Of a stretch of DNA of 64,000 nt, positions 2,239 to 43,013 are shown piece after piece. Below the pieces are notes generated by a model that saw only the letters and a program-made list of their open reading frames with translations, was not told the origin of the DNA and ran no database searches. The stretch covers positions 16,241 through 80,240 of the forward strand of contig JASNZL010000003.1 of the NCBI GenBank assembly GCA_048499675.1, written 5' to 3'. How positions within the stretch are numbered: position 1 is the first letter of the stretch; every line of letters begins with the position of its first letter. This stretch comes from Candidatus Zambryskiibacteriota bacterium (GTDB lineage: Bacteria; Patescibacteriota; Minisyncoccia; Phycocordibacterales; WO2-35-19). A program made the translations under genes and the position numbers.

Positions 2239-2243
2239 GATTT

Positions 2244-19385: not shown

Positions 19386-19425
19386 TTTAAAAGAAATCCG
19401 CGTGGGAGCCGAAGCTTCCACGCGG
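19386..19425 (-). terminator. Intrinsic terminator of a PEP-CTERM gene (part of the duplicated 131-bp block)
   Basis: ccgcgtgg-gagccgaagctt-ccacgcgg hairpin, followed on the minus strand by a T-rich run. Confidence 0.5.
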
Positions 19426-19446
19426 AATGGTTTTGCAGAGTAGCCG

Positions 19447-20091: not shown

Positions 20092-20243
20092 AAGGGAGAT
20101 TTTGTGATTTCTTATAAAACAACAAAATCTCCCCTTTGGATATATAAAAAGAACTGAGATACTTTATAACATAATGTGAAATATTATGCAAGTATACTTA
20201 TAAAAAAGCATAAATTAAATAATTGTGTTTAATCTAGTCAATT

Positions 20244-20281
20244 TAAAAGAAATCCGCGTGGGAGCCGAAGCTTCCACGCGG
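20244..20281 (-). terminator. Second copy of the same terminator hairpin
   Basis: Identical sequence to 19386-19425. Confidence 0.5.
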
Positions 20282-20302
20282 AATGGTTTTGCAGAGTAGC
20301 CG

Positions 20303-21100
20303 TTAGCTCCTGCGGGAGGCACGCTTGTGCCTGATGTAGCCGAGGCCAAGGAGGCCAAGGCCCATGAGGGCCATTGTGGCAGGTTCGGGGATCGGCTCTG
20401 TTTGCCTGAAAAGAGCAAATTGATTCCCGTTGGCGAGGGAATCAAATGTTGTATCGGGATTTTGGAGCAATAATCCAAAGTTGCCGTTCGGGCTGAACTC
20501 GGCGAATGCTCCTGGCATCGCCGAACCACCGAAGAGCAAATTGAGTGTGTTTGGCGAGTTTTGTTCAAACCAATACACACTAGTTTGATCGCTCCACGCG
20601 GCGACCTCGAGAAGCAACTGCGATGAGGTGTTGCCATTACTGAAAAGGAGTACTGAGTTGTCGGCCGACGTGCCGACGCCCCAATACTCGAGGTTCGATA
20701 CAGAAATGGCAGGACTGTACGGATTCGCACCGTAGACTCCAGTCCCTGTCATAAAATATCCAATATTCCACCCATCTCCCCCATCAAAACTGGAGTTATT
20801 CCAGTATGGAGTACCGCTCGTGTTAGGCACAACCATTGGTTGCCACGAGCCCGCGCCCACGACGGACAACGATGCTCCAGTCAACGAAAATGCTGAGTCG
20901 TTATAGTCGCGATCACCTCCAGGGAGAGGGATGTCCTCAACCCCAATCCAGATCGTTCCAGCCGAAGCCGAAACAATCAAACAAAAAAACAGAACCATCA
21001 GAAGCTTCATTTTTTTCTCCATTTCTCCTCGGTTCACTAGTGTGTGTGAGGGGAAATTTGGCCACTTGTTGAAAAATGAGCAAATTTCCCCCTCCATCAA
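20303..21100 (-). CDS. PEP-CTERM domain secreted protein (GC-rich paralog)
   Basis: C-terminus IPEPATMALMGLGLLGLGYIRHKRASRRS. The likely start is the internal MKLLMVLFFCLIVSASA signal peptide. Its 3' end is 100% identical to that of the neighbouring paralog. Confidence 0.7.
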   Translation of the reverse strand: MMEGEICSFFNKWPNFPSHTLVNRGEMEKKMKLLMVLFFCLIVSASAGTIWIGVEDIPLPGGDRDYNDSAFSLTGASLSVVGAGSWQPMVVPNTSGTPYWNNSSFDGGDGWNIGYFMTGTGVYGANPYSPAISVSNLEYWGVGTSADNSVLLFSNGNTSSQLLLEVAAWSDQTSVYWFEQNSPNTLNLLFGGSAMPGAFAEFSPNGNFGLLLQNPDTTFDSLANGNQFALFRQTEPIPEPATMALMGLGLLGLGYIRHKRASRRS

Positions 21101-21326: not shown

Positions 21327-21586
21327 ATGCCATATGTATATATATTACAAAATAATAAGGGTAAGTATTACATTGGCAGTACAACAAATATTGATAAGAG
21401 AATAAATCACCACAAAAAAGGTTACAGTATTTCAACTAAAAAATGGGCCATGTGGAATTAGTATTAAAACAAGAATATAATACTTTAAGCGAAGCCAGAA
21501 TTATTGAAATGAAATTGAAAAAACTAAAGAGACATGATTATATTAAGAAAATTGTAGAGAATGGGTACATTAAAATGCGCGCTTAG
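21327..21586 (+). pseudogene. Small GIY-YIG (URI-domain) nuclease family gene, apparently frameshifted at a poly-A tract, with its 3' end overlapping tRNA-Val
   Basis: MPYVYILQNNKGKYYIGSTTNIDKRINHHKKGYSISTKKW fits GIY-YIG motifs A and B. The conserved C-terminal half (ELVLKQEYNTLSEARIIEMKLKKLKRHDY) continues in the +1 frame after the aaaaaa at about 21435. The stop codon lies inside the tRNA. Confidence 0.5.
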
Positions 21587-21650
21587 CTCAGTTGGTTAGA
21601 GCGACTCATTGACGTTGAGTAGGCCGGGGATTCGAATTCCTCAGCGCGCA
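21577..21650 (+). tRNA. tRNA-Val (anticodon GAC)
   Basis: Hand-folded cloverleaf. Acceptor gcgcgct/agcgcgc, D arm gctc-agttggtta-gagc, anticodon arm actca-ttGACgt-tgagt, T arm gggga-ttcgaat-tcctc, discriminator A. CCA is not encoded. Confidence 0.85.
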
Positions 21651-21741
21651 CACTTCGACTTCTTTTGCAAAACTCGTTCGGTGTAAACAATGAAAGCTTT
21701 ATAAAAAGACAAATGGCTCACGCTTCGCGCGAGCCAAATAA

Positions 21742-23951: not shown

Positions 23952-24175
23952 AATTCGTGTCATTAGTGGGTTACTTTTTAATTTAGAATTTTTAATTTAA
24001 AACTCTATCGTTACTCGTAACTCGTACTTCGTATATCCTTTCTTATTCGTGTAATAAATTGAGTGATTAGTAGGTTTTACTTTCTAACTTGCGCCTTTAT
24101 GAACTTTTTAACTAATCCCCCTCGTATCTCGTACTTCGTAACTCGTACCTCGTTTTCAAAATTGGTGTCGCGCCC
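23952..24175 (+). repeat. 224-bp element carrying two arrays of CGTAACT-type heptamer repeats; left copy of a near-identical inverted-repeat pair
   Basis: The reverse complement of 46797-47019 matches it with only about 3 mismatches over 224 bp. Confidence 0.85.
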
Positions 24176-24360
24176 ACTTTACAAACCCTCAAAACTATTG
24201 ACAAATAACGTATAATTTGCTACAATGTTTTTATCGACATTGCCTTGTGCTTGTCGGGTCGCTCGTGCGCTCTTTCTCGGAGTCATATTGCATAGAATTG
24301 GAATTTTCCGGTTTTGCAATCCATGTCGGGAGCGAGAACTTTCTACGAAAGGAAAGAAAA

Positions 24361-24813
24361 ATGAGAACGAATGATGAGTACATTGTTAACTTGGTGAAGC
24401 AAGTCGTCGGCAACTCGACGATCTCCGGATTTAAAAGTCTGAGGACCCTCCAACCGGACGCTTGGTTCCTTTTCCTGTACCACAGGATCAAAGCCAAAGT
24501 CTTGAAAATGAACGATGAGACTTTGGGAAGAATCTGTGGTTATGGGCACAACAAAAACTTCAGTGAACCGATTAATTCCTCAGTCGGGTTCATTTTCAAG
24601 ACTGGCATCGAGGAAGTACAATCGCACCCTCTGGATCTCAACCTTTCTGGTCGTGAGCTCCTCGAGGAGATCGCGATCAGGACGATTGTAGCGGTCACCT
24701 GCGACATCGTCATACAGGAAGCGTACGAAGAAATTCGCCGCACCGAGCAGGGGAATGAATACCAGTTTGATAGCGTCATGGCCAAATACCTGCATTCTGG
24801 CCGCCGGTTGTAG
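24361..24813 (+). CDS. Hypothetical protein, first gene of a GC-rich four-gene islet
   Basis: SD aaaggaaag upstream of MRTNDEYIVN. No recognisable domain. GC is roughly 50% against about 33% in the flanks. Confidence 0.4.
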   Translation: MRTNDEYIVNLVKQVVGNSTISGFKSLRTLQPDAWFLFLYHRIKAKVLKMNDETLGRICGYGHNKNFSEPINSSVGFIFKTGIEEVQSHPLDLNLSGRELLEEIAIRTIVAVTCDIVIQEAYEEIRRTEQGNEYQFDSVMAKYLHSGRRL

Positions 24814-24849
24814 AAGTTCTTTCAATATTGGGCCAACACTTGATTGGCC

Positions 24850-24890
24850 CTTCCACCAGATAAAATTTGAAAAAGTTTTATGCGGTGGGA
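24850..24890 (+). repeat. 41-bp hairpin repeat cttccaccagataaaatttgaaaaagttttatgcggtggga (copy 1)
   Basis: Exact direct repeat of 25494-25534. Forms a ccacc...ggtgg / ataaaa...ttttat stem. Sits just upstream of the next gene. Confidence 0.6.
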
Positions 24891-24985
24891 GGAAACTTCC
24901 AAATCCGGCCAGTGCGCAGGCCTTTAAAACATTTGCCACTTTTTCCGAATGTTGCAAACTCGGAATCAAAAGAAAGGAACCCCTC

Positions 24986-25456
24986 ATGATTGAGAATCTG
25001 TTCCATGCAAAGATTGTTCTTTCAAACGAGGAGTGTCAGACTCTCTCCTCAATTCACCCGATGTATAAATTGCCAAAAGAGATCGGGGTAATCACTTTCC
25101 TTGGTGTCGAGGAAGGAGAATACTATAGTTTTAACACCGTACATCTGCTGATTCGTTTTGATTCATTTGCCAAGCAAGAGAAGGCAATGATGGAAGAGGT
25201 CATCACCCGCGTATTCGGAAAAGGTCGTGGGGAGATGCTTAACAACAACAGCGAACAGCGGGAGTACTCCTACAATGCGATCATCAAAATGTCGCTAAAA
25301 TACCCCCTCCGAAACCCGAAAAAGTTAATCAAGAAGAGGGCGGGAATGTTCGCAAAAGAAATCCTGAAATGGCGACAAGAACAGATTCGTCGTCACAAGA
25401 AGGAAGAGGAACAGGACTGGCAAGAGATGAGGCGTGACATGCCCGAATGGGTATAA
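24986..25456 (+). CDS. Hypothetical protein, GC-rich islet gene 2
   Basis: SD aaaggaa upstream of MIENLFHAKIV. The hairpin agcaggagag-ttta-ctctcctgct follows. Confidence 0.4.
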   Translation: MIENLFHAKIVLSNEECQTLSSIHPMYKLPKEIGVITFLGVEEGEYYSFNTVHLLIRFDSFAKQEKAMMEEVITRVFGKGRGEMLNNNSEQREYSYNAIIKMSLKYPLRNPKKLIKKRAGMFAKEILKWRQEQIRRHKKEEEQDWQEMRRDMPEWV

Positions 25457-25493
25457 ACGGCGATGAGCCTAGCAGGAGAGTTTACTCTCCTGC

Positions 25494-25534
25494 TTCCACC
25501 AGATAAAATTTGAAAAAGTTTTATGCGGTGGGAG
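25494..25534 (+). repeat. 41-bp hairpin repeat (copy 2)
   Basis: Identical to 24850-24890. Precedes the membrane-protein gene. Confidence 0.6.
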
Positions 25535-25585
25535 TAGTCCCAAAATCCCTCCGTCAAGAGACGGAGGTTAAAAAAGGAGTTCTTT

Positions 25586-25912
25586 GTGAAAAAGTTGCGA
25601 GAATTTTTTCAAGCAATAAGCCAATGGACTCAGTTGGTTGGCTTGATTGTGTACATCGTGATTATGTTTGCCTTGATTCTGAAGATTTTGGAACCGATGT
25701 CTTCGGCCATCACCTTCATGATTGCGGCCATACTCACGATTCACACTTTCGATCGTAAGCTTCTGACCATCGGGGCGTTCGTGGGAATCTTTCTCTACAT
25801 CTTGTCCTGGCCAATCACCGGCGAGTACGGGTTGTACTTCGGACTCTCCGTCTGGGCCACTGGGTTCTTCCTTTGGTTTTGGGCGGTTTGCCAATCGTTC
25901 AAACCAATCTGA
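25586..25912 (+). CDS. Small integral membrane protein (three TM segments; holin-like topology)
   Basis: GTG start with a perfect AAGGAG SD. Hydrophobic segments LVGLIVYIVIMFALIL, AITFMIAAILTI and FVGIFLYILSWPI...FFLWFWAV. Confidence 0.5.
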   Translation: MKKLREFFQAISQWTQLVGLIVYIVIMFALILKILEPMSSAITFMIAAILTIHTFDRKLLTIGAFVGIFLYILSWPITGEYGLYFGLSVWATGFFLWFWAVCQSFKPI

Positions 25913-25920
25913 AGGAGAAT

Positions 25921-26151
25921 ATGATGACAGGGATCCATTTTTTTCATGGTGATTACGGACGAGGCGGTAAAGACGGCTTCGTCCATGTTGTAGACAAATG
26001 GTGTGTGCAAACTCCGCAAGGAAAAAAACACATCACCAAAGAAAAGACTGATAGAAGAGATTACAGGATGACCGATTGCGACGGCTCCTGCGAACCGAAG
26101 CAGGAAGCGTTACCGGTCGACATCGCCAACATCGCGAGCACGGTTAAGTAG
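25921..26151 (+). CDS. Hypothetical small protein, GC-rich islet gene 4
   Basis: AAGGAG SD then MMTGIHFFHGDYGRGGKDGF. Cys-containing. Confidence 0.35.
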   Translation: MMTGIHFFHGDYGRGGKDGFVHVVDKWCVQTPQGKKHITKEKTDRRDYRMTDCDGSCEPKQEALPVDIANIASTVK

Positions 26152-27346: not shown

Positions 27347-27397
27347 GTGTTTATTTGTAGTGATTTATTATGAGCCGTGTCAAATAAGTTTATCGAA

Positions 27398-28087
27398 CTA
27401 TTTTAATCTTTGTTCCCGTACCTTGTCTAGCTTCTCTTTATCAATTTTTGTTCTTTCCCAATCAGTAGGTATTACATTTAATACTTTCTTATTTGGAATA
27501 TCTACATCAAAAACCATATCTTTCATTTTCCAATTCCTCCGCAAACCAATCTGCTCATATTTTTGTTGTATTTCATTTACAATTTCTTGAGCTTGCTTGA
27601 GTAAATCTTGTTTATCTGATTCGGTGAGATTTGCCTCATGTATAGGTCTCATTCCATCATTCGTCCAGCGAATACCTAGAATCTTTTGCATAACTATAAG
27701 ATGTTCGTTATTTCGTTTTATTTTTGCTACAGGAATAGGGGCTGGTAAACCAAATTCTCTAGCAATTTCCATTATTGAATATTCATAAAACGGATCACCA
27801 GATTTTCCAACTTGAGATTTTTCAGTGTTTACTTTCTTGCCCACAGTCTGCAATTCTAATCCTTCTGAGTTGCGCCAGACAGGCAGATCTTTGGTACAAG
27901 TCGGGTCTTCTTTTACTACACCTTGCTCATCATATTGAATTTCTCCAGACTTAATATTTCTTCCTTCTCTTTCAAAATATCCAAAAGGATCAGATTTAAA
28001 TTCTTCCGGCACAAAAGCTTCAAAATCTTTCTCAATTTTTATCTCTGCAATTGGAATATTTTCAATCCGATTTGGTTGCTCTTCCAT
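27398..28087 (-). CDS. Hypothetical protein (229 aa)
   Basis: No clear domain. A weak kinase-like C-terminal segment (LIVMQKILGIRW...KDMVFDVD) is speculative. Confidence 0.4.
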   Translation of the reverse strand: MEEQPNRIENIPIAEIKIEKDFEAFVPEEFKSDPFGYFEREGRNIKSGEIQYDEQGVVKEDPTCTKDLPVWRNSEGLELQTVGKKVNTEKSQVGKSGDPFYEYSIMEIAREFGLPAPIPVAKIKRNNEHLIVMQKILGIRWTNDGMRPIHEANLTESDKQDLLKQAQEIVNEIQQKYEQIGLRRNWKMKDMVFDVDIPNKKVLNVIPTDWERTKIDKEKLDKVREQRLK

Positions 28088-28091
28088 AGGT

Positions 28092-28391
28092 TTATTTTAA
28101 TTTAATTATCTTTTTGACCACCGAATCAACAAACAATCTAAAAGCTGGTCTCTTTTCTTTTTCATAAACAATTTTTACACCCAGTATATGTCCTTTTGGA
28201 CAAGCAAGGTATTTAGGTGTTGCTACAGGCACTTTAGGATCTGATATTCTATCCAAATACATTCTACGAAGAATCCCCGGACCATCTTTTTGATAGTGAC
28301 AAACTAAAGATTCACACTTCTCGCAAAAAATTCTCAACATACGACTATACCCTCCCCGCACCTTCTTATATTTATCATTCTTAAATTTCAT
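28092..28391 (-). CDS. Hypothetical zinc-ribbon protein
   Basis: CEKCESLVCH...CPKGH, a four-ligand Cys/His arrangement. 99 aa. Confidence 0.4.
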   Translation of the reverse strand: MKFKNDKYKKVRGGYSRMLRIFCEKCESLVCHYQKDGPGILRRMYLDRISDPKVPVATPKYLACPKGHILGVKIVYEKEKRPAFRLFVDSVVKKIIKLK

Positions 28392-29021: not shown

Positions 29022-32000
29022 TTATGCAACCAATTCATTGACGCTTTCGTACACATACCCAAAAATTTTTGAGGTTTTTGATTCGATCAAGCCTTCATCA
29101 TACGGCTCAGGTAGTTCATCATACAAAACATCTTTTATAGTTACCAAAACCTTTGCTCTACCCTGTTGAGTTTTTCTCCAATCAAGAACAAAAGCTGTTT
29201 GTCTCAATTTCTGTAACAAATCTTTTGCAACTTTCTTGATCTCCTTAATTTCATTTTCTTTCAAGTCTTCTTTATAAAGCAAATCAAAAATCGCAAGCTC
29301 TTCTTCAGTCAGCTCTTCTCTCACCCCTCTTTTTTCTTCATCGTTTAAAGATTCTGCAAATTTCATCAAAGCCTCAAAAAAATCTTCAATATTTTTTGAG
29401 CCAGAATTATATTCTGAAAGTAATTTTTCAAATTGCTCTACTAGTTTTTGTCTTGTTGGATTAAGTCGCACCAATTCTTCAAGTTTTTCTTTCAAAGATT
29501 GCTTCAATTTTTCTGCTTCTTTTCTTTTATTTTTTTCAAAATACTTTCGCAATTTCTCAAAATCAATCTTACTCAAATCATACGGCTTATAATCTTCAGA
29601 AATCACATACCCTTCAGCAGTGATTGCATTATCAAGAAGCTCTTCAATAGCGTCTGCAACGTCTTCTACATTCACATCTTTTCGGGTCAAGATTCGCACA
29701 CGCTCTGCCAGAACTCGATACAATTTTACTACATTAAAAAATTCACTCGCACTTGGATCAGGCATAATAGCCCCCAAAAGACTTGTCGCGCGATTACTCA
29801 TCATCAAAAATTCGTTCTTGGATTCCTCATTAGTCAAAATGGCATCCACAGCACCATCAATCAAAGCTAGTTTTTCAAAATCAACAGATTTTTCTATATC
29901 TAAAATATCAATAGAATGTTCATTACAATATTTATCAAGCTCACACAAAACTCCTCGTAATTCATTTACCAGTTCTGTTTTTGGTTTTATGGGCTTTGCA
30001 TCTTCATCACCTCGCGCTCCATAAATAGCCAAAGCTTTTTTCAGACTTCGAAATACTCCGATATAGTCCACAATCAATCCATTTGTCTTTGCGCCCCAAA
30101 CACGGTTTGCACGAGCAATCGTTTGCATCAATGTGTGATTTTTCATCGGCTTATCCAGATACACCGTCGAAATAATCGGTGCATCAAATCCAGTCAGCCA
30201 CATATTGCAGACAATCACAATTTTCAAAGGATCATTTACATCTTTGAATTTCTTTTCCAAATCCTCATTTATCATTCTTCGGCGATGAGTTTCTATATCA
30301 AGCCCAAGCTTTCGGAAATCATCCACTTCGTTTTGAGCCGAACTCATAACTACCGCAATATCAGGACAGTTTGGCTGCGCCTTCATTTTGTCATACATTT
30401 TCACCGCAGTTGGTCGATCTATCGCCACAAACAACGCCTTACCATCATTCCCTTGGCTGTTAAAATGTTCAATCACATCACGGGCAATAGTGTTCAATCG
30501 TTCTTCTCTCGTGATCAAATGATATTCAGTATTAAATTCTCGTTCAAGCTTTTTCTCTTGATCATCATCAAGCTCAAAAGTTTCAAGCACTGTTCCCAAA
30601 TCCTGCCCTAAACTCTCCAAATCAATCTGCAGCTCTGGAATACGGTTCTCGTAATACAAAGGCACTGTCGCCTTGTCATCCACAGACTGCTTGAAATCAT
30701 AAATACTGACATAGTCTCCAAAAGTATTCTTGGTTTGTTCTTCTTCGCCAGAAATAAGCGGAGTTCCTGTAAATCCGATAAATGAAGCATTCGGTAAAGC
30801 CCGACGCATATTGAGCGCCAGAGTGTCATACTGGCTTCGGTGAGCCTCGTCAGTCATCACGATAATATCGCTTCTATCTGAAAGCTTTGGAAACTCTTTT
30901 TCTGCTTCTTGCAATTGGAATTTGTGAATCAAGGTAAAAATATTGCGATGGTCTTCGGTCAAAAGCATTCTCAAATGATCAACACTTTTTGCTCTCACCA
31001 TTTCTTCAGGCTCAAGCACCGCACCCACACCCGCAAAGTTTGCATAAATCTGCTTGTCGAGTTCCTGCCTATCTGTCACCACAAGAAAAGTATAGTTCCC
31101 TTCATATTTTCGAAAAATCTTTTGAGCGAAAAATACCATAGAATAACTCTTTCCTCCTCCTTGTGTATGCCAAAAGACCCCAATTCGTCCATTGTTTTCT
31201 TCTCGCTTTTCAAAAGATTTAATCGCATTATTTACTCCTAAATACTGATGATTTTTACCAATCAATTTTATCGTTCCCTTGCTCGTCTCTTGAAACAATA
31301 CAAAGTTTTCAATAATATCAAGCAGGCGCGTTCTGTCGCAGATACCACGAAGCAGGGTTTCCAAATCCACCTTTCCTTTTTCTTCTTCATCACTAATTCT
31401 TTTCCAATCAGAAAAATGTTCAAACCCGCTCGTAATAGAACCCATCTTTGCATCAAGTCCATTTGAAATAATCAAAAGCTGGTTGTACCAAAATATCTGC
31501 GGAATTGTGTCTTTATAGTCTCGAATATTTCCATCAAATGCATCTCGCAAGTTTTTGTGCGCAGCTTTGAGCTCGACAAACACTAACGGCAACCCATTCA
31601 CAAAACCCACCAAGTCCGCTCGGCGTTTATACATATCACCCGAAATCCACATCTGTGACACCAAAGTAAAATGATTGTTCTCTGGATTATCAAAATCAAT
31701 CACACGCACCGTTTCCACATCACGAGTTCCGTCATCACTCACCACATCCACCTTGACCCCGTTTTTCAAAAGCTCATAGATTTCTTTGTTCGCTTTGACC
31801 ATACTCATTTTTGAGCGGTCTTTAATGATTTCTTCTATTGCTTCATCAATAGCACTTTTTGCGATGTTTGGATTTAATTTCTCCAAAGCAGTCCGAAGAC
31901 GAGAAAACAAGACAACCTGACCCTGATGTTCCCTCCCAAGCCTTGCATCACCTTCGTCAGTATAGGCATTCACAAAATCCATTTCGCCATCTTTTCCAGC

Positions 32001-32066
32001 CCAAAGTTCCGACAAAAGCCGGATTGCAGGTTGTTCTATGAGATTGTCTTCGTTAAAGGGGTTCAT
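29022..32066 (-). CDS. hsdR: Type I restriction enzyme R subunit
   Basis: 1014 aa with an HsdR N-terminal domain, SF2 helicase motifs (Walker A, then DEAHRS) and a long coiled C-terminus. Confidence 0.9.
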
Positions 32067-32075
32067 ATTATTATA

Positions 32076-33551
32076 TTAAAGCATTTTTTCTATTTTTTTT
32101 CTAAATTTTTCTACCTCAGTATTATTATTGTGAATCCAAAGTTTCCACACATGACTAGCATTTCTCCCCCAAAATTTTTTTTGACTACTATACCATTTCT
32201 TTAATTTTTCTCTTAATTTACTTTTATCTAACTCACCATCAAGTACTGATAATTCCTTAAAGCAAAATGGTTTGTTATAGCCTGCTTGTTTTTTCCAAAA
32301 AACATCACCAGCATCTACAGTTTTAAGAAAATCATACATCAACCTGTCTGGCCCCTTTGATCCAGGTAAACAAATTACATTGGAAACACTGGTAACATTT
32401 GAATCGCCATCCAAAACAATAATGGATTTTTGAAAATCTGGGATCTTCTTTTTTGCCAAATCATTTAAAACTTTATATCCAAGTTTTGTTGATATTATGT
32501 TTACCCTGTCTTTTTGTTCTGTTGTTAAAATATTTTTTAACAAATCAACAGCTTCGTCGTCTTCGCAATATAAATACTTTTTGTTTTTTTGAATTTTAAA
32601 ACCATCTGGCCCTAAAACTAGTAAACTACTTCGTATTGCATTAAAGTCCAAGTCATATAAAACATTAATTTCACCATGTGACTTATCTAAGAAAATAATT
32701 TTTGAATCACTCAACTCCTTAACCTTTTCTAACACTTCCAAAGAATGTGTAGTGAAGAATATTTGCAAATTGAGTTGTTTTGAAACTTTGTCTAAATAAT
32801 TTATTAATCGTATTTGAGCCGCAGGAAACAAACTTGCATCTATTTCATCAATTAATAAAACTCCTCCATTGTATTTATCACCTAATTCTTTTTGCAATCT
32901 CTTATAAGAAATAATTACGGTAATGATGTGACCTAAATTATCTTGTCCAGCTGAATTTCCCAAATGATTGTAGTCTTTAGTAGTTGGAGCATAAAATTTT
33001 TTATTTGTTGATCTTACTGATTCGGGAATAATTTTTTCATCAATTATTAAAATATCGTTATGAATTTCTTCATAATATTTAATTTCTTGTTGTGTAAGTT
33101 CAGAAATTTCACTTTTAATTTCAGCCTCAATATTCAAAGGAAATAATCTACCCATACCTAAATATTGCACTGGAAAATTTAATTTACCTTCATCTTTAGC
33201 ACTCTTTCCAACCCTTATTCTTATTGTTTTTTGCTTACCTTTTTCTATGCGATCATAAGACAAAGCTTTTATATTTTTATTGTCATCAAAATATGTTATC
33301 CACTCATGAGTTCCAGATTTATCAAATTCAGGATATGCAAATTTAAAAATATCAGAAAATTCTGTAGAGAAATTTTTACCTGTAAGATTTTTGTAAGAAT
33401 TATCAAAATTAAAAATATGCCCTATTAAACCTAGTATTGTAGTTTTTATTGTTCCATTTTGGCCAGCAATTGCATTTAATCTTGACGCAAAATTTACCTC
33501 TAAATTAGAGACTTTTCTAAATTTTAATATTTCTAATTTAGTAATTTTCAT
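32076..33551 (-). CDS. Restriction-linked ATPase (RloA/RloB-like): ABC/AAA_21-type ATPase with a C-terminal Toprim/DUF4435 (OLD-like) domain
   Basis: N-terminal AGQNGTIKTTILGL (atypical Walker A), Walker B VLLIDEIDASLF, and an H-loop TTHS. The C-terminal segment with IIVLDGDS is Toprim-like. It sits between hsdR and hsdS. Confidence 0.6.
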   Translation of the reverse strand: MKITKLEILKFRKVSNLEVNFASRLNAIAGQNGTIKTTILGLIGHIFNFDNSYKNLTGKNFSTEFSDIFKFAYPEFDKSGTHEWITYFDDNKNIKALSYDRIEKGKQKTIRIRVGKSAKDEGKLNFPVQYLGMGRLFPLNIEAEIKSEISELTQQEIKYYEEIHNDILIIDEKIIPESVRSTNKKFYAPTTKDYNHLGNSAGQDNLGHIITVIISYKRLQKELGDKYNGGVLLIDEIDASLFPAAQIRLINYLDKVSKQLNLQIFFTTHSLEVLEKVKELSDSKIIFLDKSHGEINVLYDLDFNAIRSSLLVLGPDGFKIQKNKKYLYCEDDEAVDLLKNILTTEQKDRVNIISTKLGYKVLNDLAKKKIPDFQKSIIVLDGDSNVTSVSNVICLPGSKGPDRLMYDFLKTVDAGDVFWKKQAGYNKPFCFKELSVLDGELDKSKLREKLKKWYSSQKKFWGRNASHVWKLWIHNNNTEVEKFRKKIEKML

Positions 33552-33556
33552 AAAAT

Positions 33557-34762
33557 TTATTTAACCTCCACTCGCCCACCGACTAACTGCGGAATGAGGA
33601 TGTCTCTTGTTTTTTGTAAGTTTTGGTTTTGTTTTTTTAAATTTAAAACCTGAATAAAAACATCGTTTAATTTTTCATTTATATTATTTAATGCTTCTTC
33701 AGCAGGTATAATAATTTCAAAATCTTTAATTGCTGAGCTTGCATGCATAATTGTTGTACCTTTTGCATGTTCTTTGATTTTATTTTGAATATCTTCAGAA
33801 TTCATATAGCAATATAAAAATCCGTCAGAAAAAATTTCTGATTTTATTTTTCTTATTCCTGATGAGTATGCGCCATTAAAACCGAATCTAACTAAGCCAA
33901 CGGAACCATCAAAACTTACCAAAACATCATTCTCTTCACATATTTTTCCTTTACATAAATTTATATCTACAAAAATATTTTGCTCTTTGTTTAGATCAGA
34001 AACTCTAATAAATTTTACAAAATTGTTTATTTGAATCTCTGAATAACTAGAAGAACCAGGCTCAACACCTCTCTCAAAAGAAATTATTTCTTCTGCTTTC
34101 TTCACCTCCCACCCATTAGGTAATCCATCTTTTACAGGTTTTACAAACCATTCTTTGTAGAGGGTTTGGGCGAGGGTTTCGAGGGTTTTTATTTTCTTTT
34201 GATTCACCTCAATCAAATCATCATATGCCGAAAGCACCTCCGCAATTTTCTTTTGTTTGGAGAGAGGAGGAAGCAAAAACTCAAACTCTTTTAAAACTGG
34301 AGCATTCGCGTGCGGTTGAGCAGCGCCGCCCGCATTTTGAACTACGAAACTTTTAAAAATATCAGATTCTATTAAAGAACCAAGGAAAAAATTATCTAAA
34401 TCTTGAGTTTTAGGTTTGATTCTTATTAAGTACGAAGCAAAAACAGAATTTATAGGAGGGTCTTTTCTAAAAAGTTTTGCATATCCAGCGGTCGCGCCAG
34501 TTCTAGCAACAACAATATCCCCTTTTTTTAATAAAAATTGATTTAGTTTATTTTCTTCTATTTTACAAAATGGAACATTATTCCAATCTATCAATTGAGG
34601 TACGATATCTGTGATTCTAATTAACTTTACACCCGTATCTTTGTTTTCAGCAGAAGCAGTAAAGCCATAAGAAAAATCGCAAACCTCACCCAACTTCACC
34701 CTCTTCCACTCCGTCTTGCGAGTTTTCTCCCTACTATTCTTTTGTGTCGTTTGTGTAGGCAT
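33557..34762 (-). CDS. hsdS: Type I restriction enzyme specificity subunit
   Basis: Two target-recognition domains separated by the conserved central helix (KQKKIAEVLSAYDDLIEVNQKKIKTLETLAQTLYKEWF). Confidence 0.85.
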   Translation of the reverse strand: MPTQTTQKNSREKTRKTEWKRVKLGEVCDFSYGFTASAENKDTGVKLIRITDIVPQLIDWNNVPFCKIEENKLNQFLLKKGDIVVARTGATAGYAKLFRKDPPINSVFASYLIRIKPKTQDLDNFFLGSLIESDIFKSFVVQNAGGAAQPHANAPVLKEFEFLLPPLSKQKKIAEVLSAYDDLIEVNQKKIKTLETLAQTLYKEWFVKPVKDGLPNGWEVKKAEEIISFERGVEPGSSSYSEIQINNFVKFIRVSDLNKEQNIFVDINLCKGKICEENDVLVSFDGSVGLVRFGFNGAYSSGIRKIKSEIFSDGFLYCYMNSEDIQNKIKEHAKGTTIMHASSAIKDFEIIIPAEEALNNINEKLNDVFIQVLNLKKQNQNLQKTRDILIPQLVGGRVEVK

Positions 34763-34873
34763 CCCAGTACTAAAATTTTAAATTAAAACTAATAATTTTA
34801 TCAGCGTATATCTCCTTATTCTTTTGTGTATTTTTATTTAACATAATCAAAAATTTAGTACCGGACAAGTATA

Positions 34874-36145
34874 TTATTTCAATAAATCATCAAGCTCAGC
34901 ATTCAGAAGTGCCGACTTGGTCAAGACGATCTGTTCACTTCTCACTAAATTATCTGCAGTCATACGAACAATTTTTGTTCTAATTTCATCAGTCATTACT
35001 TCCCGATTTGTCTTTGCAAGATAGTTTTCAACCTTTTCATAGAAAAGTGTTGTATATTGCATAATCTTATCTCCTGAAAATCTTTCCCTATCTTCTACAG
35101 AAATATATTTTTCAAGGTCTGTATTTATCGCTGTTGGAATATTTCCATCACTAAATTCCATCCAGTAGTCGCTGATGGTGAAAATAAATCTTACACGGTT
35201 ATTTTCTGTGGTTTTGTAATAGTAAATAAACGAATAATTATCAGATCGAAAATCCTGATGTAGGCGAATCATTTCTAGTTCTGTTACTTGATAAATCGGG
35301 TATTGTTTAAGTAAATGCATATAGGTTGAAAGCCAGTTTTGAAGCCAGTTATCAATATAGCGAGTTTCAGTAAAAAGTGGTTTCAAATCTTGTTCGAGAT
35401 TCTTTTGGTTAACTTCGTTCATTTTGAAGGTTAGTTTATCAAATAGTTCCTGAAGATTTTTTACATTGATATTTTTTGCTTTAAGATAGTCCAAATCCGG
35501 AATTATTCTTTTGTTCATATACCAAAGCAAGTCATAAATATCTCGTCCTTTTTCACCAAAAATATCTTGTCCGACATTTCTTTCACCACGGAGGAAAATT
35601 GCAGCGATTTTACTCGCCATGAGGTTTGACATATTGTATGTTTTGATAACAAAAGAAAGCTGATTACGGTTGATTGGGATGCGTTCAGTGGTTGTTTTTG
35701 GTGCAGAGAAAAAGTTTAAATCTACTTTTACATGCACCTGGTCCGATGTGTGACCCAAACCAAGACCTTCACCAACATGGAAGTTGAGTCGGAGCCCGCG
35801 AGAACCTACTATTTTTATAGAAAGAAATTCGTCTTCGGTGCTGTATGTTTTTTTGAAATAGTCATTCATATCGTTTTTGAGTTTTTCGAGAAGGTCTGGT
35901 GTTGGTTCAATATCAATTTCAAAATCCAAATCAACAGACATTCTATCAAGTCCGTGACAAATACGAAGCGCAGAACCACCATACATGGTCCACTCACTGT
36001 ATTCTGGATGATGATAAATACAATCGAGAATATAAAACTGCAACTCTTCTTTGAGAGCGTTTCTCTTTGCTTCAATATCAACACTACCTATTGCATTTAT
36101 TTCATCAAGTCTACTTTTTAGTTTTAGAAAAATTTGATTATTCAT
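34874..36145 (-). CDS. AbiEii-type nucleotidyltransferase toxin (DUF1814)
   Basis: MYGGSALRICHGLDRMSVDLDFE matches the GG[ST]AL...R.S.DLDF signature of AbiEii/type IV TA nucleotidyltransferases. Confidence 0.6.
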   Translation of the reverse strand: MNNQIFLKLKSRLDEINAIGSVDIEAKRNALKEELQFYILDCIYHHPEYSEWTMYGGSALRICHGLDRMSVDLDFEIDIEPTPDLLEKLKNDMNDYFKKTYSTEDEFLSIKIVGSRGLRLNFHVGEGLGLGHTSDQVHVKVDLNFFSAPKTTTERIPINRNQLSFVIKTYNMSNLMASKIAAIFLRGERNVGQDIFGEKGRDIYDLLWYMNKRIIPDLDYLKAKNINVKNLQELFDKLTFKMNEVNQKNLEQDLKPLFTETRYIDNWLQNWLSTYMHLLKQYPIYQVTELEMIRLHQDFRSDNYSFIYYYKTTENNRVRFIFTISDYWMEFSDGNIPTAINTDLEKYISVEDRERFSGDKIMQYTTLFYEKVENYLAKTNREVMTDEIRTKIVRMTADNLVRSEQIVLTKSALLNAELDDLLK

Positions 36146-36149
36146 ATGA

Positions 36150-36764
36150 TTATTTTAAATATTCTTTTACCATTGCGTAAAACACATTTTTATCTTCTTC
36201 TGCCATTTCTTCAATATCAATACGCAAACTTTCTACTAATGAATCAATTTGTTCGAAAGAAATCCCTCGAAACTGATTTGTTTTGAAATACAATAGATCA
36301 AACAAAGCTTTGGCTGGTGTTGCAATGTAATATTCAAAATCTTCTTTTTTGAGAATAAAATCTTTAAAAAGTTTTTTATTTATTGAGTGATATGAAAATG
36401 TCCCAATTTTTGTTTCGTAATCACGAGTTATTTTTTCTGACACACAAGTGATTGTATTGATTGCTTCTGTAGTAAGTCCGTAATACTGAAGAGCAGTCCA
36501 AGAGCTGATATATGAAGGCGTACGGAGAATGTTTGCAAGATAAAAAAGATACGAAATTTTATCTTTGTTTTTCTCGTAAAAGTCTGTTGTGATGTATAAA
36601 CCGTTTTTCAATAAAATAATTTCTTTATTTGCAACAGATCGAGAAAGATATGAATTTACAGTTGCATCTAATACAGAAAATTCCTTTGCTAAACCAGAAA
36701 AAGCCTTTTTAGTAAAAAAGGGTTCTTTTTTAAGATTTTCAATTATATTCGTTCGGTATTTCAC
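36150..36764 (-). CDS. AbiEi-type antitoxin / transcriptional regulator
   Basis: N-terminal MKYRTNIIENLKKEPFFTKKAFSGLA...LKNGLYIT resembles the AbiEi N-terminal wHTH domain. Immediately upstream of, and 4 bp from, the AbiEii gene. Confidence 0.55.
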   Translation of the reverse strand: MKYRTNIIENLKKEPFFTKKAFSGLAKEFSVLDATVNSYLSRSVANKEIILLKNGLYITTDFYEKNKDKISYLFYLANILRTPSYISSWTALQYYGLTTEAINTITCVSEKITRDYETKIGTFSYHSINKKLFKDFILKKEDFEYYIATPAKALFDLLYFKTNQFRGISFEQIDSLVESLRIDIEEMAEEDKNVFYAMVKEYLK

Positions 36765-36876
36765 TTTTTATATGATATCATATAAATTCTGAAAAGCAAA
36801 CAAAAATGTGTATAATTATACATAAACTATACACATTTTATACATATTCTGATTTTTGCTTGTAAAATAAGGCTTT

Positions 36877-38439
36877 TTACAGTATTTTCTTGAGGTTTTC
36901 CTTGATTTTCTTCTCTAAAACTGCTGATTCTTTAAATAGATTCTCTAGATCATTTGAAAGATTTTGGACTTTTTCATGAAAATCCTCTTCAGATTCTTCA
37001 ATTACTTCAGTCCCCACATATCGCCCTGGGTTGAGCGAATATCCTGCTTCAGCGACTTCTTGCAATGTTGCAACCTTACACAGTCCTTTTACATCTTCGT
37101 ATTTCCCTGCCCCACTTTCGCCACGATACACACGGACAATATTTGCAATTTGATCTATTTGCTCTGGAGTAAACTTTTTCTTATTTCTTTGTTCAGTGTC
37201 TTCATCTATTGTAAAAATTTGACGCGCGTCAATAAATAAAATTTTATCTTTTCTATCAGAATTTATTTTTCCTTTATCAAAAAACCAAAGTGTGCATGAA
37301 AGTGCAACTGTGTAAAAGAAATTATCTCCAACAGAAATCATTACATCCACGGCTCCAGAATCTATAATTTTTTTACGAATCTCTTTTTCTGCCCCACCAG
37401 CATCACTCGCTGCGTTAGACATAACAAAACCCGCTCTCCCTTTTTCATTTAAAGAAGAGAGGAAAAGTTGTATCCAAATATAATTTCCGTTTCCTATTTC
37501 ATCCTTTCCAGTAAGAGGTAGACCGAAAGGAAATCGTCTCGCTGGATTTATCACTCTTTCTCTATCTATTTTTCCAGTCTTTTTTCCCCCAACATTAAAT
37601 GGTGGGTTAGCCATTACAAAATCAAATTTACCAGTTGAATTGTAAGGATCTTCATAATAAGCATTTGCGGATGTCACCACACCAGAAAGTCCATGCACAG
37701 CAAGGTTCATCTTGCAAAGATTAGTTGTTTCTCCCAGCTTCTCTGATCCATACACAGAAATTACATCTTGATTTGTTTTCTTGTGCTTTTTTACAAAATT
37801 TGCACTTTGCACAAACATACCCCCCGATCCACAAGCAGGATCATAGACTTTTCCTTTGTACGGTTCGAGGATTTCTACAATTAATTTTACAAGAGAGGTT
37901 GGAGTAAAGAATTCTCCTCCACCCTGTCCTTCTTTCATGGCAAAACTTGAAAGAAAGAATTCATAAATCTTTCCGAACACATCACCCTCAACATCCATAG
38001 GAATTTCACTGAAAGTTTTTAGAAGACCAAACAGGGTTTTACTATCAAGCTTAGTATATGTTTTTGGTAAAATACCTCTTAAATCTGAATTATATTCCTC
38101 AATTTCTTTCATCGCATCATTGATTGCTTTTCCAATATTTGCGCTCTCTTTTAAATTAAGAAGATATGAAAAGCGAGCAATTTCAGGAATATACATAATT
38201 CCTTTTGCTTGGTATTCTTCAGGACCAATCCTTCTTTCACGAACCACAGAAGCTCCGGATTTTTTAACATTTTTTAATTCATCATTTGCGTGTTCGAATT
38301 TAAATTCAGCAAATCGCAAGAAAATAAGTCCAAGGACAGGTTGAGAATACTGATGCACGCTCAAATCAGATTCTGTTCTAAAAGATTCTGCAGCATTCCA
38401 TAATCGCTCTTCAATTTTCTTAAGACTTTCTTTTACCAT
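36877..38439 (-). CDS. hsdM: Type I restriction-modification N6-adenine DNA methyltransferase
   Basis: HsdM N-terminal domain, SAM motif I (DPACGSGGMF) and catalytic VMANPPFN. Confidence 0.9.
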   Translation of the reverse strand: MVKESLKKIEERLWNAAESFRTESDLSVHQYSQPVLGLIFLRFAEFKFEHANDELKNVKKSGASVVRERRIGPEEYQAKGIMYIPEIARFSYLLNLKESANIGKAINDAMKEIEEYNSDLRGILPKTYTKLDSKTLFGLLKTFSEIPMDVEGDVFGKIYEFFLSSFAMKEGQGGGEFFTPTSLVKLIVEILEPYKGKVYDPACGSGGMFVQSANFVKKHKKTNQDVISVYGSEKLGETTNLCKMNLAVHGLSGVVTSANAYYEDPYNSTGKFDFVMANPPFNVGGKKTGKIDRERVINPARRFPFGLPLTGKDEIGNGNYIWIQLFLSSLNEKGRAGFVMSNAASDAGGAEKEIRKKIIDSGAVDVMISVGDNFFYTVALSCTLWFFDKGKINSDRKDKILFIDARQIFTIDEDTEQRNKKKFTPEQIDQIANIVRVYRGESGAGKYEDVKGLCKVATLQEVAEAGYSLNPGRYVGTEVIEESEEDFHEKVQNLSNDLENLFKESAVLEKKIKENLKKIL

Positions 38440-38448: not shown

Positions 38449-39126
38449 TTATAACATTTTTTCTTTCCTAAAACTATAAAAGCTTTTTGAAGTTATTATC
38501 ACATGATCCTCTATTTCTATCCCTAAAATCTCTGCGGACTGCTTGAGCCTTTTTGTAACTTCTTTGTCTTCTGGTGAAGGATCCAAGCTTCCGGACGGAT
38601 GATTGTGTGCCAGGATAATACTTCCGGCGTTAAGCCTTATCGCATGTTCAAAGACTTCTCGAGGATGCACAAGCGAGGCGTCTAAAATACCAATAGAAAT
38701 AATTTGTCTTTCGATAAGATTTTTCTGCGAATCAATATAAAAAGCTATGAAGTGTTCTTTCTTAGAATCTTTAATATCTGTGCAGAGTTGCCATATATCT
38801 TTTGGCGAAAGTATTTCTATTTTTTCATTGCTTGAAAACCTGTTTCCAAGTTCAAGGAGTGCAAGAATTTGCAAGGCTTTTGCTTTTCCCAATCCTTTTA
38901 TTTCAAGCAAATCTTCAAGTGTAATATTTTGCAAACCTTTCTTTTTTGTTTTCTGTAAAACTTTTTTAGAAAGTTCAAGTACATTTAAACCTTTAATTCC
39001 CGAACCAAGCAAAATTGCAAGGAGTTCAAAATCTTTTAATTTCTTAGAACCATACTTTTCCAATTTTTCACGAGGCAAATCTACTCTTGGAAGATTTTTT
39101 AATTTCATATTACAAATTATTTTCAT
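38449..39126 (-). CDS. radC: RadC-like JAB/MPN domain protein
   Basis: Helix-hairpin-helix N-terminus and the JAMM motif HNHPSGSLDPSPED. Confidence 0.85.
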   Translation of the reverse strand: MKIICNMKLKNLPRVDLPREKLEKYGSKKLKDFELLAILLGSGIKGLNVLELSKKVLQKTKKKGLQNITLEDLLEIKGLGKAKALQILALLELGNRFSSNEKIEILSPKDIWQLCTDIKDSKKEHFIAFYIDSQKNLIERQIISIGILDASLVHPREVFEHAIRLNAGSIILAHNHPSGSLDPSPEDKEVTKRLKQSAEILGIEIEDHVIITSKSFYSFRKEKML

Positions 39127-39676
39127 CCATTAATTCACGAATGGTTTTTCCTTTATATGTCCAAAAAATTGTGCCTTGTACGGCTTTCCATTTTTTATTA
39201 AACTTATCTTTCAAAACTTTCTGCGCAGATTTCGAAAGAGATGTATTATCGCCATTAAAGATAATAATATTACCTTTTCCAACTACTGCGGTAATATCTT
39301 GGTAAATATCATCTCCTTCTTTAAATTTAAGAATATCTCCCTCTTTTATACCAATTTTTGCAAATTTACCCTTAAGCTCGGAATCTTTTTCAAACGAAAT
39401 ATTTTTGTTATCTGAAATAAAATCACAAATCCTTTCTGGATGAACCTTTAAGAATTCTCTTTTTCTATTAATCCTCTGTTTTGCAAAATGTTGTAATATT
39501 TTTTGCTCTAATAATTCAACATTCTTCAAATCAAATCTTTCATATAATTGAAATCTTGTAGGTGTTGAGGTCTTGTTATTTAAGCTTTTTAACCTTTTAT
39601 CAATATCTCCAGTTATTCCAACTTTGCATATATTCGGCATAGAGATATTAGTAATAATATACAAAAAGTTTTTCAT
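39110..39676 (-). CDS. T5orf172 (GIY-YIG-like) domain protein
   Basis: FLYIITNISMPNICKVGITGDIDKRLKSLN matches the T5orf172/GIY-YIG-like N-terminal pattern. C-terminal region is uncharacterised. Confidence 0.5.
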   Translation of the reverse strand: MKNFLYIITNISMPNICKVGITGDIDKRLKSLNNKTSTPTRFQLYERFDLKNVELLEQKILQHFAKQRINRKREFLKVHPERICDFISDNKNISFEKDSELKGKFAKIGIKEGDILKFKEGDDIYQDITAVVGKGNIIIFNGDNTSLSKSAQKVLKDKFNKKWKAVQGTIFWTYKGKTIRELMDENNL

Positions 39677-39680
39677 ATAT

Positions 39681-40451
39681 TTAATTTATTATCACCTGTT
39701 TATCTGTTGTGTTGTCCCAAATTTCCCATTTTGAGAAATCAGGAATCATGTAAAAGGTTTCGCTTTCTTTGCCGCCAGAGTTTGCAACAGTTACATTTAT
39801 ATACATCACCTCCTTACCTCTAAGTGGAATTCCGGTACCCATATATACAAAAGTAGAGCCAGTAGTATTTTCAAGATTATATAAAATTGGCTTAGACCCA
39901 GTTGAATTTATTACTTCTAATCTCTGTATTGAACCAACCTTTCTAGTGTCATTTACAGTTGATTCTTTTATATTAAAAACAGCTTTTTTAATTACTATAT
40001 CGCGCGATGTATTAAATGGGAAAGTTATTTTGTTTGTATTTAAAATATAAGAAAAATTAAAATCAGAGAATTCATTATTTAGGTTTTCATTATTAAACTC
40101 ATTAGTTTTATTTGCTTTACAAATATCAAGACTAGAACTTAATGAATTTACTTTTTCCTTAAGTGAAGCATTTTCTTGAAAAAGAGTATTTATTTGTTTT
40201 TGTAATTCAGGATTATCAACAACTATTGTTTTTTCTATAATTTTTTCTTTAATAACCTCTTCTGTTTCTAATAATTTCCCACTATTATCAAAATTATTGT
40301 CATCCACATTGTCAATATTGTTGTTAGTTTCTTGAATAAAATTAGCACTATTTCTTTCAAACCACGAAAACGGATTCCACCAAGAGGCAAGTACTATGTG
40401 GGGCACAATAAACATCAATAAAAATACAACAATATATAATTTATTTCTCAT
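39681..40451 (-). CDS. Hypothetical secreted/membrane-anchored protein with a coiled-coil
   Basis: N-terminal TM helix, an Asn-rich linker, the coiled segment LQKQINTLFQENASLKEKVNSL, and a beta-rich C-terminus. Confidence 0.4.
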   Translation of the reverse strand: MRNKLYIVVFLLMFIVPHIVLASWWNPFSWFERNSANFIQETNNNIDNVDDNNFDNSGKLLETEEVIKEKIIEKTIVVDNPELQKQINTLFQENASLKEKVNSLSSSLDICKANKTNEFNNENLNNEFSDFNFSYILNTNKITFPFNTSRDIVIKKAVFNIKESTVNDTRKVGSIQRLEVINSTGSKPILYNLENTTGSTFVYMGTGIPLRGKEVMYINVTVANSGGKESETFYMIPDFSKWEIWDNTTDKQVIIN

Positions 40452-40731
40452 ATCATTTTATAATACTTAATACCCCCAGTATCCCACAATTTCCTTCAAA
40501 AATCCACATAACAAAATCATTCCACCGTGCCGTGGAATGATTGATTATCCCCGCCAATAACAGGTTGGGCATTCCCAATATTCATCAAATTTATAGGCCT
40601 TGGACTACTTTTTCATAACATTAAATTCCCTCTCCTTTTTCAATTCCAAAACCACACACAGGGTAGCCCTGTGCAATATCACCTTTCAATCTCTTCCCTA
40701 ATCATTCTCCCTTTTTGGAGAATGATTAATT

Positions 40732-42884: not shown

Positions 42885-42928
42885 AACTCTTGGTGGGTTT
42901 CCCCACGGCCACTTTCTCCCGCACATTG

Positions 42929-43013
42929 CGGAGGAGACAGGATTCGAACCTGCGGTACCTTGCGGTACACCCGCTTTCCAAGCGAGCGCATTCGACCGCT
43001 CTGCCACTCCTCC
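42929..43013 (-). tRNA. tRNA-Ser (anticodon GGA), type II with long variable arm
   Basis: Hand-folded. Acceptor ggaggag/ctcctcc, 3-bp D stem, anticodon arm ctcgc-ttGGAaa-gcggg, variable hairpin tacc-gcaa-ggta, T arm gcagg-ttcgaat-cctgt, discriminator G. Confidence 0.85.

Follow-up and report, generated by a model that had tools for sequence, protein, structure and literature searches.

When a type I restriction-modification (R-M) operon carries two unrelated defence modules between its own subunit genes, the question arises whether these genes are fixed partners of the operon or exchangeable cargo, and whether they act with the R-M system or beside it. We addressed this question for a locus in a 64-kb window (the whole stretch of DNA analysed, to which positions refer unless another locus is named) from a genome of the Patescibacteria (Paceibacterota; candidate phyla radiation, CPR); the HsdR cluster at 90% identity includes members named Candidatus Paceibacterota. 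Genes were read from the listing of open reading frames (ORFs), and families were assigned by Pfam, PADLOC and NCBIfam profile searches. Six co-oriented minus-strand ORFs follow one another in the order hsdM, abiEi, abiEii, hsdS, a gene for a 491-amino-acid (aa) ATPase, and hsdR, all where an earlier reading of the same DNA (the original prediction) had placed them. That prediction was also right that two unrelated defence modules are nested in the operon, an AbiE pair at the hsdM-hsdS junction and the ATPase gene at the hsdS-hsdR junction. Comparison with relatives indicates that both junctions are slots in which the cargo is exchanged. In the direction of reading, with the gap to the following gene, the genes are:

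38449..39126, minus strand: radC-like gene with a JAB domain (Pfam RadC 2.1e-40, UPF0758_N); 9 nt to hsdM
36877..38439, minus strand: hsdM, 520 aa (N6_Mtase 7.5e-84, HsdM_N 2.4e-18, PADLOC MTase_I 8.5e-200); 112 nt to abiEi
36150..36764, minus strand: abiEi, GTG start, 204 aa, antitoxin and putative autorepressor (PADLOC AbiEi 1.7e-35); 4 nt to abiEii
34874..36145, minus strand: abiEii, 423 aa, predicted DUF1814 nucleotidyltransferase toxin (Pfam AbiEii PF08843 1.5e-24, residues 39-262); 111 nt to hsdS
33557..34762, minus strand: hsdS, 401 aa (Methylase_S 2.2e-32, two stretches); 5 nt to the 491-aa gene
32076..33551, minus strand: OLD-family ABC ATPase fused to a probable Toprim-like nuclease, 491 aa (Pfam AAA_15 5e-17, AAA_21 1e-10); 9 nt to hsdR
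29022..32066, minus strand: hsdR, 1014 aa (TIGR00348 8e-166; HSDR_N, SWI2_SNF2/ResIII, T1R_D3-like and T1RH-like_C)

Two cargo slots in a type I operon

Judged by sequence, hsdM, hsdS and hsdR are intact, and each subunit carries the features expected of its type I counterpart. The HsdM translation shows the motifs DPACGSGG and NPPF, HsdS consists of two target-recognition domains (TRDs) between conserved regions, and HsdR, with the motifs VELK and DEAH, carries all four Pfam domains expected of type I, which cover a PD-(D/E)xK nuclease, an SF2 motor and a C-terminal helical region; its nearest solved relative is the type IC EcoR124I HsdR (4e-35). Around this framework the nested genes vary. 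Three loci (L-numbers designate the loci compared) have an hsdR that is 91-93% identical in DNA to that of the window, L165 standing at 92.6%, and they are arranged as follows:

L081, a metagenome-assembled contig: arrangement as in the window, a second occurrence of the whole locus
L164, a Candidatus Paceibacterota metagenome-assembled genome: CBASS...radC-hsdM-[AAA_14/PDC-S01-like]-[NYN]-hsdS-[Shedu SduA]-hsdR
L165: ...abiEii-hsdS-[406 aa][151 aa]-hsdR

In these three relatives the 5' end, centre and 3' end of hsdS are 92-98% conserved and the TRDs diverge. DNA homology extends as far as the stop codon of hsdS and picks up again some 10-20 nt ahead of the hsdR ATG, so that the cargo boundaries are precise to the ORF. 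The nested genes vary at greater distance too, in orthologous operons at 46-56% aa identity:

L001: radC-[NYN]-hsdM-hsdS-[OLD]-hsdR, without AbiE
L143 and L145: [abiEi-abiEii]-radC-hsdM-hsdS-hsdR, without the OLD-like gene
L149: as L143 and L145, with hsdM apparently fused to a partial hsdS

Both cargos are also found away from type I genes: no Hsd gene adjoins 74 of the 80 OLD-family loci, close homologues of the 491-aa protein adjoin polA, holA or radical-SAM genes, and the AbiE pair stands alone in 65 of 80 AbiE loci. The nested genes are, by these sequence comparisons, variable cargo and not core neighbours, and this is our strongest result. The original prediction had named synteny among relatives as a comparison to make, and the outcome that would have spoken against it, conservation of these genes as core neighbours of hsdMSR, fails, since near-identical operons hold other genes in the same two slots.

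L164 retains probable footprints of cassette replacement by recombination. At its positions 5114-5346 a relic that comprises the hsdM-abiEi spacer, the GTG start and the opening codons of abiEi is kept upstream of the unrelated AAA_14 (PDC-S01-like) cargo, and the first ~70 nt of hsdS occur twice, at 6821-6894 and 7719-7784, flanking the NYN gene. A search for direct repeats flanking the cargo, as transposition would leave them, gave none that was convincing. Three further type I loci in which this OLD family occurs likewise hold two or more cargos:

L008: hsdM-NYN-hsdS-OLD-hsdR
L018: hsdM-OLD-hsdS-[302 aa + Panacea antitoxin]-hsdR
L035: hsdS-[DUF4917/SIR2-like]-[Abi_C]-[82-aa ORF, opposite strand]-OLD-hsdR

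The pair of 406 aa and 151 aa that fills the hsdS-hsdR slot of L165 (positions 1695-3367 there) has no Pfam or PADLOC match and is a candidate new defence module by guilt-by-embedding.

The region upstream of radC is a third variable spot, where the window carries one further defence candidate:

39110..39676, minus strand: T5orf172/GIY-YIG-like gene (Pfam MUG113 and T5orf172; PADLOC PDC-S57 2.9e-37)

L081, although ~91% identical elsewhere, lacks window positions 39110-40558, which comprise this gene and one for a predicted membrane protein of 256 aa; the same position holds CBASS (CD-NTase and Cap15) in L164 and the AbiE pair in L143, L145 and L149. RadC itself lies directly upstream of hsdM in L081, L164, L143, L145 and L149, and upstream of hsdR-hsdM in L128. 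The gene is a conserved leader of the operon in CPR relatives. In several CPR type I operons, which belong to different families, radC is sometimes a few nucleotides from hsdM or overlaps it, and its recurrent placement suggests that RadC and type I R-M have a conserved functional connection in CPR organisms. Downstream of hsdR, at 27360-28387, lie ORFs of 99 aa and 229 aa without a Pfam or PADLOC match, in whose place L081 carries an ORF of 78 aa together with a NUDIX gene; both loci share the genes on the flanks (137 aa, 165 aa and ASCH). Two patches of the window, 19001-21000 and 24001-26000, are GC-rich (0.44-0.47 against ~0.34 in the rest) and have no Rfam match.

The predicted ATPase-nuclease and its genomic link to methyltransferases

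The product of the gene between hsdS and hsdR is conserved over its full length in a family of at least 593 homologues, and in a scan of one genome per species 358 stretches, across bacterial and archaeal phyla, encode a relative. Besides AAA_15 and AAA_21 it matches Pfam SMC_N, and in PADLOC it matches both ATPase-Toprim_I-B, the retron type I-B effector (8.6e-22, residues 1-399), and HEC-04 (1e-20, 71.8 bits, residues 4-409 against profile positions 28-404 of 494); the retron model scores slightly higher, and HEC-04 has no curated threshold. The AlphaFold (AF2) model has a mean pLDDT (predicted local distance difference test) score of 86.4, and its top full-length Foldseek matches are the retron Eco8 effector (9lpa_B), the Thermus scotoductus OLD protein (6p74) and GajA (8x5i), with E-values of about 1e-11 to 1e-12, while the ATPase head also matches the heads of Rad50, SMC, PtuA and OLD proteins. 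In an alignment of 31 diverse family members K36, S200/G202/D204 of the SAGQD signature, D235-E236, E330-D331 and D381xD383 are invariant, and H269 in the TTHS H-loop is nearly so. Motifs and structure match identify the ATPase part as an ABC ATPase and, going by the model, the whole protein as an OLD-family ATPase-nuclease. The C-terminal region of the model forms an alpha/beta Toprim-like fold followed by a helical bundle; E330-D331 come after a strand at 325-329 and D381xD383 after a strand at 377-380, within a b-a-b-a-b-b domain, which makes a Toprim assignment probable.

OLD proteins are classed by their partners: a UvrD-like helicase defines class 2, a retron reverse transcriptase with its non-coding RNA class 3, and a separate AriB class 4. 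Among the window neighbours there is no helicase, retron or AriB partner, and an Rfam search of the whole window finds only two tRNAs (Val-GAC, 21577-21651; Ser-GGA, 42928-43013); by exclusion, the 491-aa protein therefore resembles the stand-alone class 1. The label "RloA/RloB-like" with a DUF4435 C-terminus, under which the gene had been predicted, is not supported: Pfam RloB and DUF4435 do not match the protein. Other assignments were tried and rejected as well. An RloA/RloB-AbiL-PARIS type does not fit a single fusion protein, of which the AriAB model covers residues 1-67 and the AriA and AbiLi models the ATPase part only; a PrrC type is excluded by the lack of any PrrC or HEPN match in the protein, and membership of MADS by scores of 48.8, 15.1 and 60.6 bits for MAD2, MAD3 and MAD5 against NCBIfam cut-offs of 720, 420 and 400. 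A profile of the C-terminal domain found nothing among the Protein Data Bank (PDB) sequences.

A methyltransferase-based module adjoins 46 of the 80 OLD-family loci, a type I system in five and a PD-Lambda-5-like module in 41. The PD-Lambda-5-like modules stand beside distant members of the family (32-38% identity; within L013-L080, for example L022:2622-6303, L025:3763-7527 and L062:8580-12397). A D12-class adenine methyltransferase (PD-Lambda-5_B, 1e-113; B below) occurs in 41 of the 80 loci and a PD-Lambda-5_A-like protein (A) in 25, and the gene orders are OLD-A-B (15 loci), OLD-B (16), A-OLD-B (2) and A-B-OLD (2). The OLD-like gene and the PD-Lambda-5-like module may form an unrecognised three-gene arrangement.

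This neighbourhood could mean that the OLD-like protein guards the R-M system in the manner of PrrC, with HsdMSR, or methyltransferase partners generally, holding the nuclease latent until a phage anti-restriction protein releases it. The gene lies between hsdS and hsdR, the slot that prrC fills at EcoprrI, with gaps of only 5 and 9 nt to hsdS and hsdR; the 46 methyltransferase-linked loci of 80 include A-OLD-B orders, and where triggers are known for related ABC-ATPase systems, they are anti-restriction proteins (Payne et al. 2024). However, the nearest OLD homologues outside R-M loci (39-57% identity; L002-L012) stand alone beside housekeeping genes, so that Hsd proteins are not obligatory partners for the family, and at a near-identical hsdR the slot holds the unrelated Shedu gene or the 406-/151-aa pair, as expected of a generic landing site rather than of a specific partnership. 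We therefore consider a guard of this kind unlikely.

The Walker A motif reads GQNGTIKT (33443-33466), with Ile35 before K36, as the original prediction correctly noted. Among 186 unique family members the residue before the Walker A lysine is G in 58, S in 45, C in 32, Q in 29, H in 7, M in 7, A in 3, I in 3 and L in 2, that is, a residue other than glycine in 128 (69%). Across these sequences the deviation is a trait of the family and not a peculiarity of the 491-aa protein. It also tracks genomic context: in raw counts that ignore kinship, 40 of 41 methyltransferase-linked loci have a residue other than glycine (Q 25, S 12, C 2, L 1; the remaining one does not), and glycine is found in 26 of 35 other loci. 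As a bolder possibility, the ~490-aa OLD-like family might serve methylation-based immunity as a dedicated companion, and its degenerate P-loop might reflect an ATPase whose nucleotide cycle is gated by a methyltransferase or R-M partner. In that case a PD-Lambda-5-like module would in truth comprise three genes (OLD-A-B, sometimes A-OLD-B), and the OLD-like protein of the window would guard HsdMSR against anti-restriction proteins, as PrrC does EcoprrI; we consider this doubtful.

Still less probable is the view originally taken of the isoleucine, according to which the ATPase is a regulatory, non-hydrolysing variant. The motif is real, most relatives also lack the glycine, and the deviation marks 40 of 41 methyltransferase-linked loci. 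Yet the 31 aligned members show little or no variation at K36, T or S at 37, D235, E236, SAGQD and the H-loop, as selection on an active site would lead one to expect; the canonical glycine is kept by 58 of 186 members of the same family; and in HEC-04 the Walker A lysine is essential for defence (Payne et al. 2024). Because every other catalytic residue is invariant and 69% of the family do without the glycine, the ATPase site looks functional, and a non-hydrolysing reading finds no support.

The AbiE pair and the proposed control of the two cargos

The 423-aa toxin carries motifs I-IV, defined as hG[GS], R..DhD, KLxAaxxR and +DxxD (Dy et al. 2014), with G56-G57-S58, R68, D72/D74, K179, A182, R186, R201-D202 and D205 invariant in the subfamily alignment. 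Its homologues (n=1715) are mostly from Patescibacteria, and abiEi lies immediately upstream of abiEii in 74 of 74 metagenome loci with a detected abiEi ORF. By family and motif the 204/423-aa pair is thus a genuine AbiE module, with the toxin in a long form. The families had been predicted correctly in that Pfam AbiEii and PADLOC AbiEi match, but the Pfam AbiEi models do not: the 204-aa protein has no Pfam match, an E<=5 search of the isolated region giving only noise, and NCBIfam TAA_AbiEi reaches 4.7e-8, below its cut-off. What sets the toxin apart is a C-terminal extension of ~145 aa (residues 280-423; 34877-35308) with a mean column identity of 73% and invariant residues that include D302, Y310, T312, D326, K371, E373, K391 and R394. 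The extension, searched as an isolated region, has no Pfam match at E<=5 beyond noise and none among PDB sequences, in which the whole of AbiEii likewise has no detectable relative of solved structure. The AbiEii of S. agalactiae and the MenT toxins are roughly 290 aa long, so that the toxin here is ~130 residues longer.

The spacers around the pair differ from the tight joints around the OLD-like gene, and three elements were identified in them:

36803..36839, minus strand: 15-bp hairpin AAAAUGUGUAUAGUU / AAUUAUACACAUUUU with a U-rich tail, in the hsdM-abiEi spacer (RNA fold)
36767..36800, minus strand: candidate abiE promoter/operator, TTTGCT...TATGATATCATA palindrome before the GTG start, common to L083 and L090
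34763..34873, minus strand: abiEii-hsdS spacer, with complementary 11-nt arms CCGGTACTAAA / TTTAGTACTGG at both ends (RNA fold)

The 112-nt hsdM-abiEi spacer folds with -23.1 kcal/mol (z = -3.54). Its hairpin is preserved to the base in L081 and also in L164, despite the other cargo there, and is absent upstream of the nearest abiE relatives, L083 and L090, which lie outside any R-M locus at 74% identity; for this reason it probably belongs to the flank of hsdM and not to abiE. We predict that it is probably a terminator or attenuator at the hsdM flank, the alternative being an operator. A reading of the 12-nt inverted repeat in this spacer as the AbiEi operator is largely disfavoured, as the hairpin is absent in the nearest AbiE relatives and kept where AbiE is replaced. 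The TATGATATCATA palindrome, in turn, is degraded in L164, where AbiE is replaced, and most other loci of the AbiE subfamily have TTGACA-N17-TACACT bracketed by TGACA/TGTCA. By analogy with the autoregulation described for AbiEi (Dy et al. 2014), TTTGCT...TATGATATCATA is likely to be the abiE promoter/operator. The abiEii-hsdS spacer folds with -20.4 kcal/mol (z = -3.23 against shuffled controls) and is 95% conserved in L165. Judging from its tight packing, the OLD-like gene is presumably co-transcribed with hsdS-hsdR, and AbiE appears to be insulated by the terminator-like hairpin and to have its own promoter. Co-regulation with the R-M system, which the nesting had been taken to suggest for both cargos, is plausible for the OLD-like gene with its 5- and 9-nt gaps but not for the AbiE pair, which stands behind the hairpin with its own candidate promoter. 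That AbiE is here chiefly an addiction module, stabilising the island by post-segregational killing should the R-M locus be lost, with no anti-phage role, is very improbable. In favour of it, AbiE is able to stabilise plasmids (Dy et al. 2014), the pair is mobile and occurs in many settings, and it is embedded so that its loss needs deletion of part of the operon. Against it, close strains readily differ in what the slot contains, so that the pair does not keep itself from being replaced; AbiE systems have anti-phage activity in experiments (Dy et al. 2014); and the two roles are not mutually exclusive.

A probable layered defence island and its known counterparts

Taken together, the data favour a small defence island with a type I operon, radC-hsdM-hsdS-hsdR, as its backbone; the two junctions of the operon serve as cargo slots, and the island would provide three independent, layered defences; we assign this explanation a probability of about 0.72. 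As a plausible mechanism, HsdMSR would methylate self DNA and cleave unmodified incoming DNA. In the OLD-like protein, ATP binding or hydrolysis in the ABC head could license the predicted metal-dependent Toprim nuclease upon a phage cue; going by P2 Old, Gabija, PARIS and PrrC, the cue may be a factor directed against restriction or RecBCD. AbiEii, which AbiEi would usually keep neutralised, would halt growth through nucleotidyl transfer, probably onto tRNA, as the analogy with MenT toxins suggests. The OLD-like gene would be expressed with hsdS-hsdR and AbiE as a self-regulated unit, and cargo could be swapped between related operons by recombination in conserved segments, namely the 3' end of hsdM, the 5' and 3' ends of hsdS and the 5' end of hsdR.

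Several points weigh against this explanation. We infer the independence of the three systems from their genomic autonomy, and the frequent methyltransferase linkage of the OLD-like family could mean a functional tie to methylation-based immunity. Protein functions at the locus are predictions from sequence, structure model and analogy. The promoter and terminator calls are based on consensus and fold, and in a generic sigma-70 and terminator scan the site counts were no higher than in shuffled sequence. As to the Toprim fold, for which a structure prediction had been proposed as a check, the full-length comparison points to OLD nucleases but the domain taken by itself does not. Pfam Toprim, OLD-like_TOPRIM, DUF4435 and RloB have no match, even at E<=5 on the isolated C-terminal domain; the isolated domain (model pLDDT 87.8) has no significant Foldseek match, the search ranking CheY- and RecJ-like alpha/beta folds first and Bp OLD (6nk8) 13th with E=0.14; and in an hhalign comparison of the family with P2 Old the Walker B region alone aligns, with 54% probability, which is uninformative for Toprim.

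The locus is a clean natural case of defence-island diversification, in which two junctions in one operon take up unrelated anti-phage genes and re-assort independently among CPR strains whose hsdR is >91% identical. It does so in CPR/Patescibacteria, organisms with ~1 Mb genomes and little-studied immune repertoires, and its slots can be used for guilt-by-embedding discovery, as with the 406-aa and 151-aa pair of L165 and the long-form AbiEii's C-terminal domain. New here are the two-slot re-assortment, the OLD-like subfamily with its degenerate P-loop and PD-Lambda-5-like linkage, and the long-form AbiEii; current concepts stand, and nothing in the locus overturns them.

A systematic "guilt-by-embedding" survey covers defence genes embedded in loci of the type I R-M, BREX, DISARM and Hma systems; type I R-M loci often host such genes (Payne, Hughes, Fineran & Jackson 2024, bioRxiv 10.1101/2024.01.29.577857). 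HEC-04, from that survey, is a validated anti-phage ATPase-TOPRIM fusion in which the Walker A lysine and an E/D/D triad are essential. The locus in the window likewise nests defence genes between the subunits of a methylation-based system, and HEC-04, a single ABC ATPase-TOPRIM fusion of ~490 aa, resembles the 491-aa protein in both architecture and embedding. However, with 72 bits the profile match is a distant one, and the retron I-B model does equally well, so that the two proteins may or may not belong to one family; the host of HEC-04 is Hma and the host here is type I R-M in a CPR bacterium, and, unlike in HEC-04, the Walker A glycine is degenerate in the OLD-like family.

The prr locus of E. 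coli (EcoprrI, type IC, with PrrC between hsdS and hsdR) shares the order hsdM-hsdS-cargo-hsdR, and PrrC likewise has an N-terminal ABC-type NTPase; the host HsdR here is nearest to type IC EcoR124I among solved structures. The effectors differ, a HEPN anticodon nuclease in PrrC and a probable Toprim-like domain here, and PrrC is almost exclusively R-M-embedded (Payne et al. 2024), whereas the OLD-like family is mostly found outside type I loci. With the OLD family (P2 Old; Ts and Bp OLD, class 1; GajA, class 2; retron Eco8, class 3) the 491-aa protein shares the ABC head and, probably, a C-terminal Toprim-like domain. It is ~90 to 250 residues shorter than these proteins (586 aa in P2 Old to roughly 740 aa), its sequence resembles theirs in the ATPase motifs only, and, unlike in known OLD proteins, the P-loop is deviant and the probable Toprim domain is missed by Pfam. 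The AbiE pair resembles characterised AbiE systems (Dy et al. 2014) and MenT toxins in its bicistronic abiEi-abiEii order, in its DUF1814 toxin with motifs I-IV and in a palindrome-bearing candidate promoter region upstream, and departs from them in the strongly conserved C-terminal extension of the toxin, which contains no recognisable domain, and in an antitoxin that escapes the Pfam AbiEi models.

Strain-variable genes inside type I loci are known from the rlo genes (R-linked ORFs) of Campylobacter jejuni (Miller et al. 2005) and from V. cholerae TgvAB, where variable accessory genes likewise lie between the hsd genes of conserved type I loci. The cargo families differ from those here, RloB and DUF4435 not matching the 491-aa protein, and, unlike in rlo and TgvAB loci, two slots vary independently among strains with at least 91% identical hsdR. 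The locus is a clear example of this already known embedding phenomenon and not a new kind of system.

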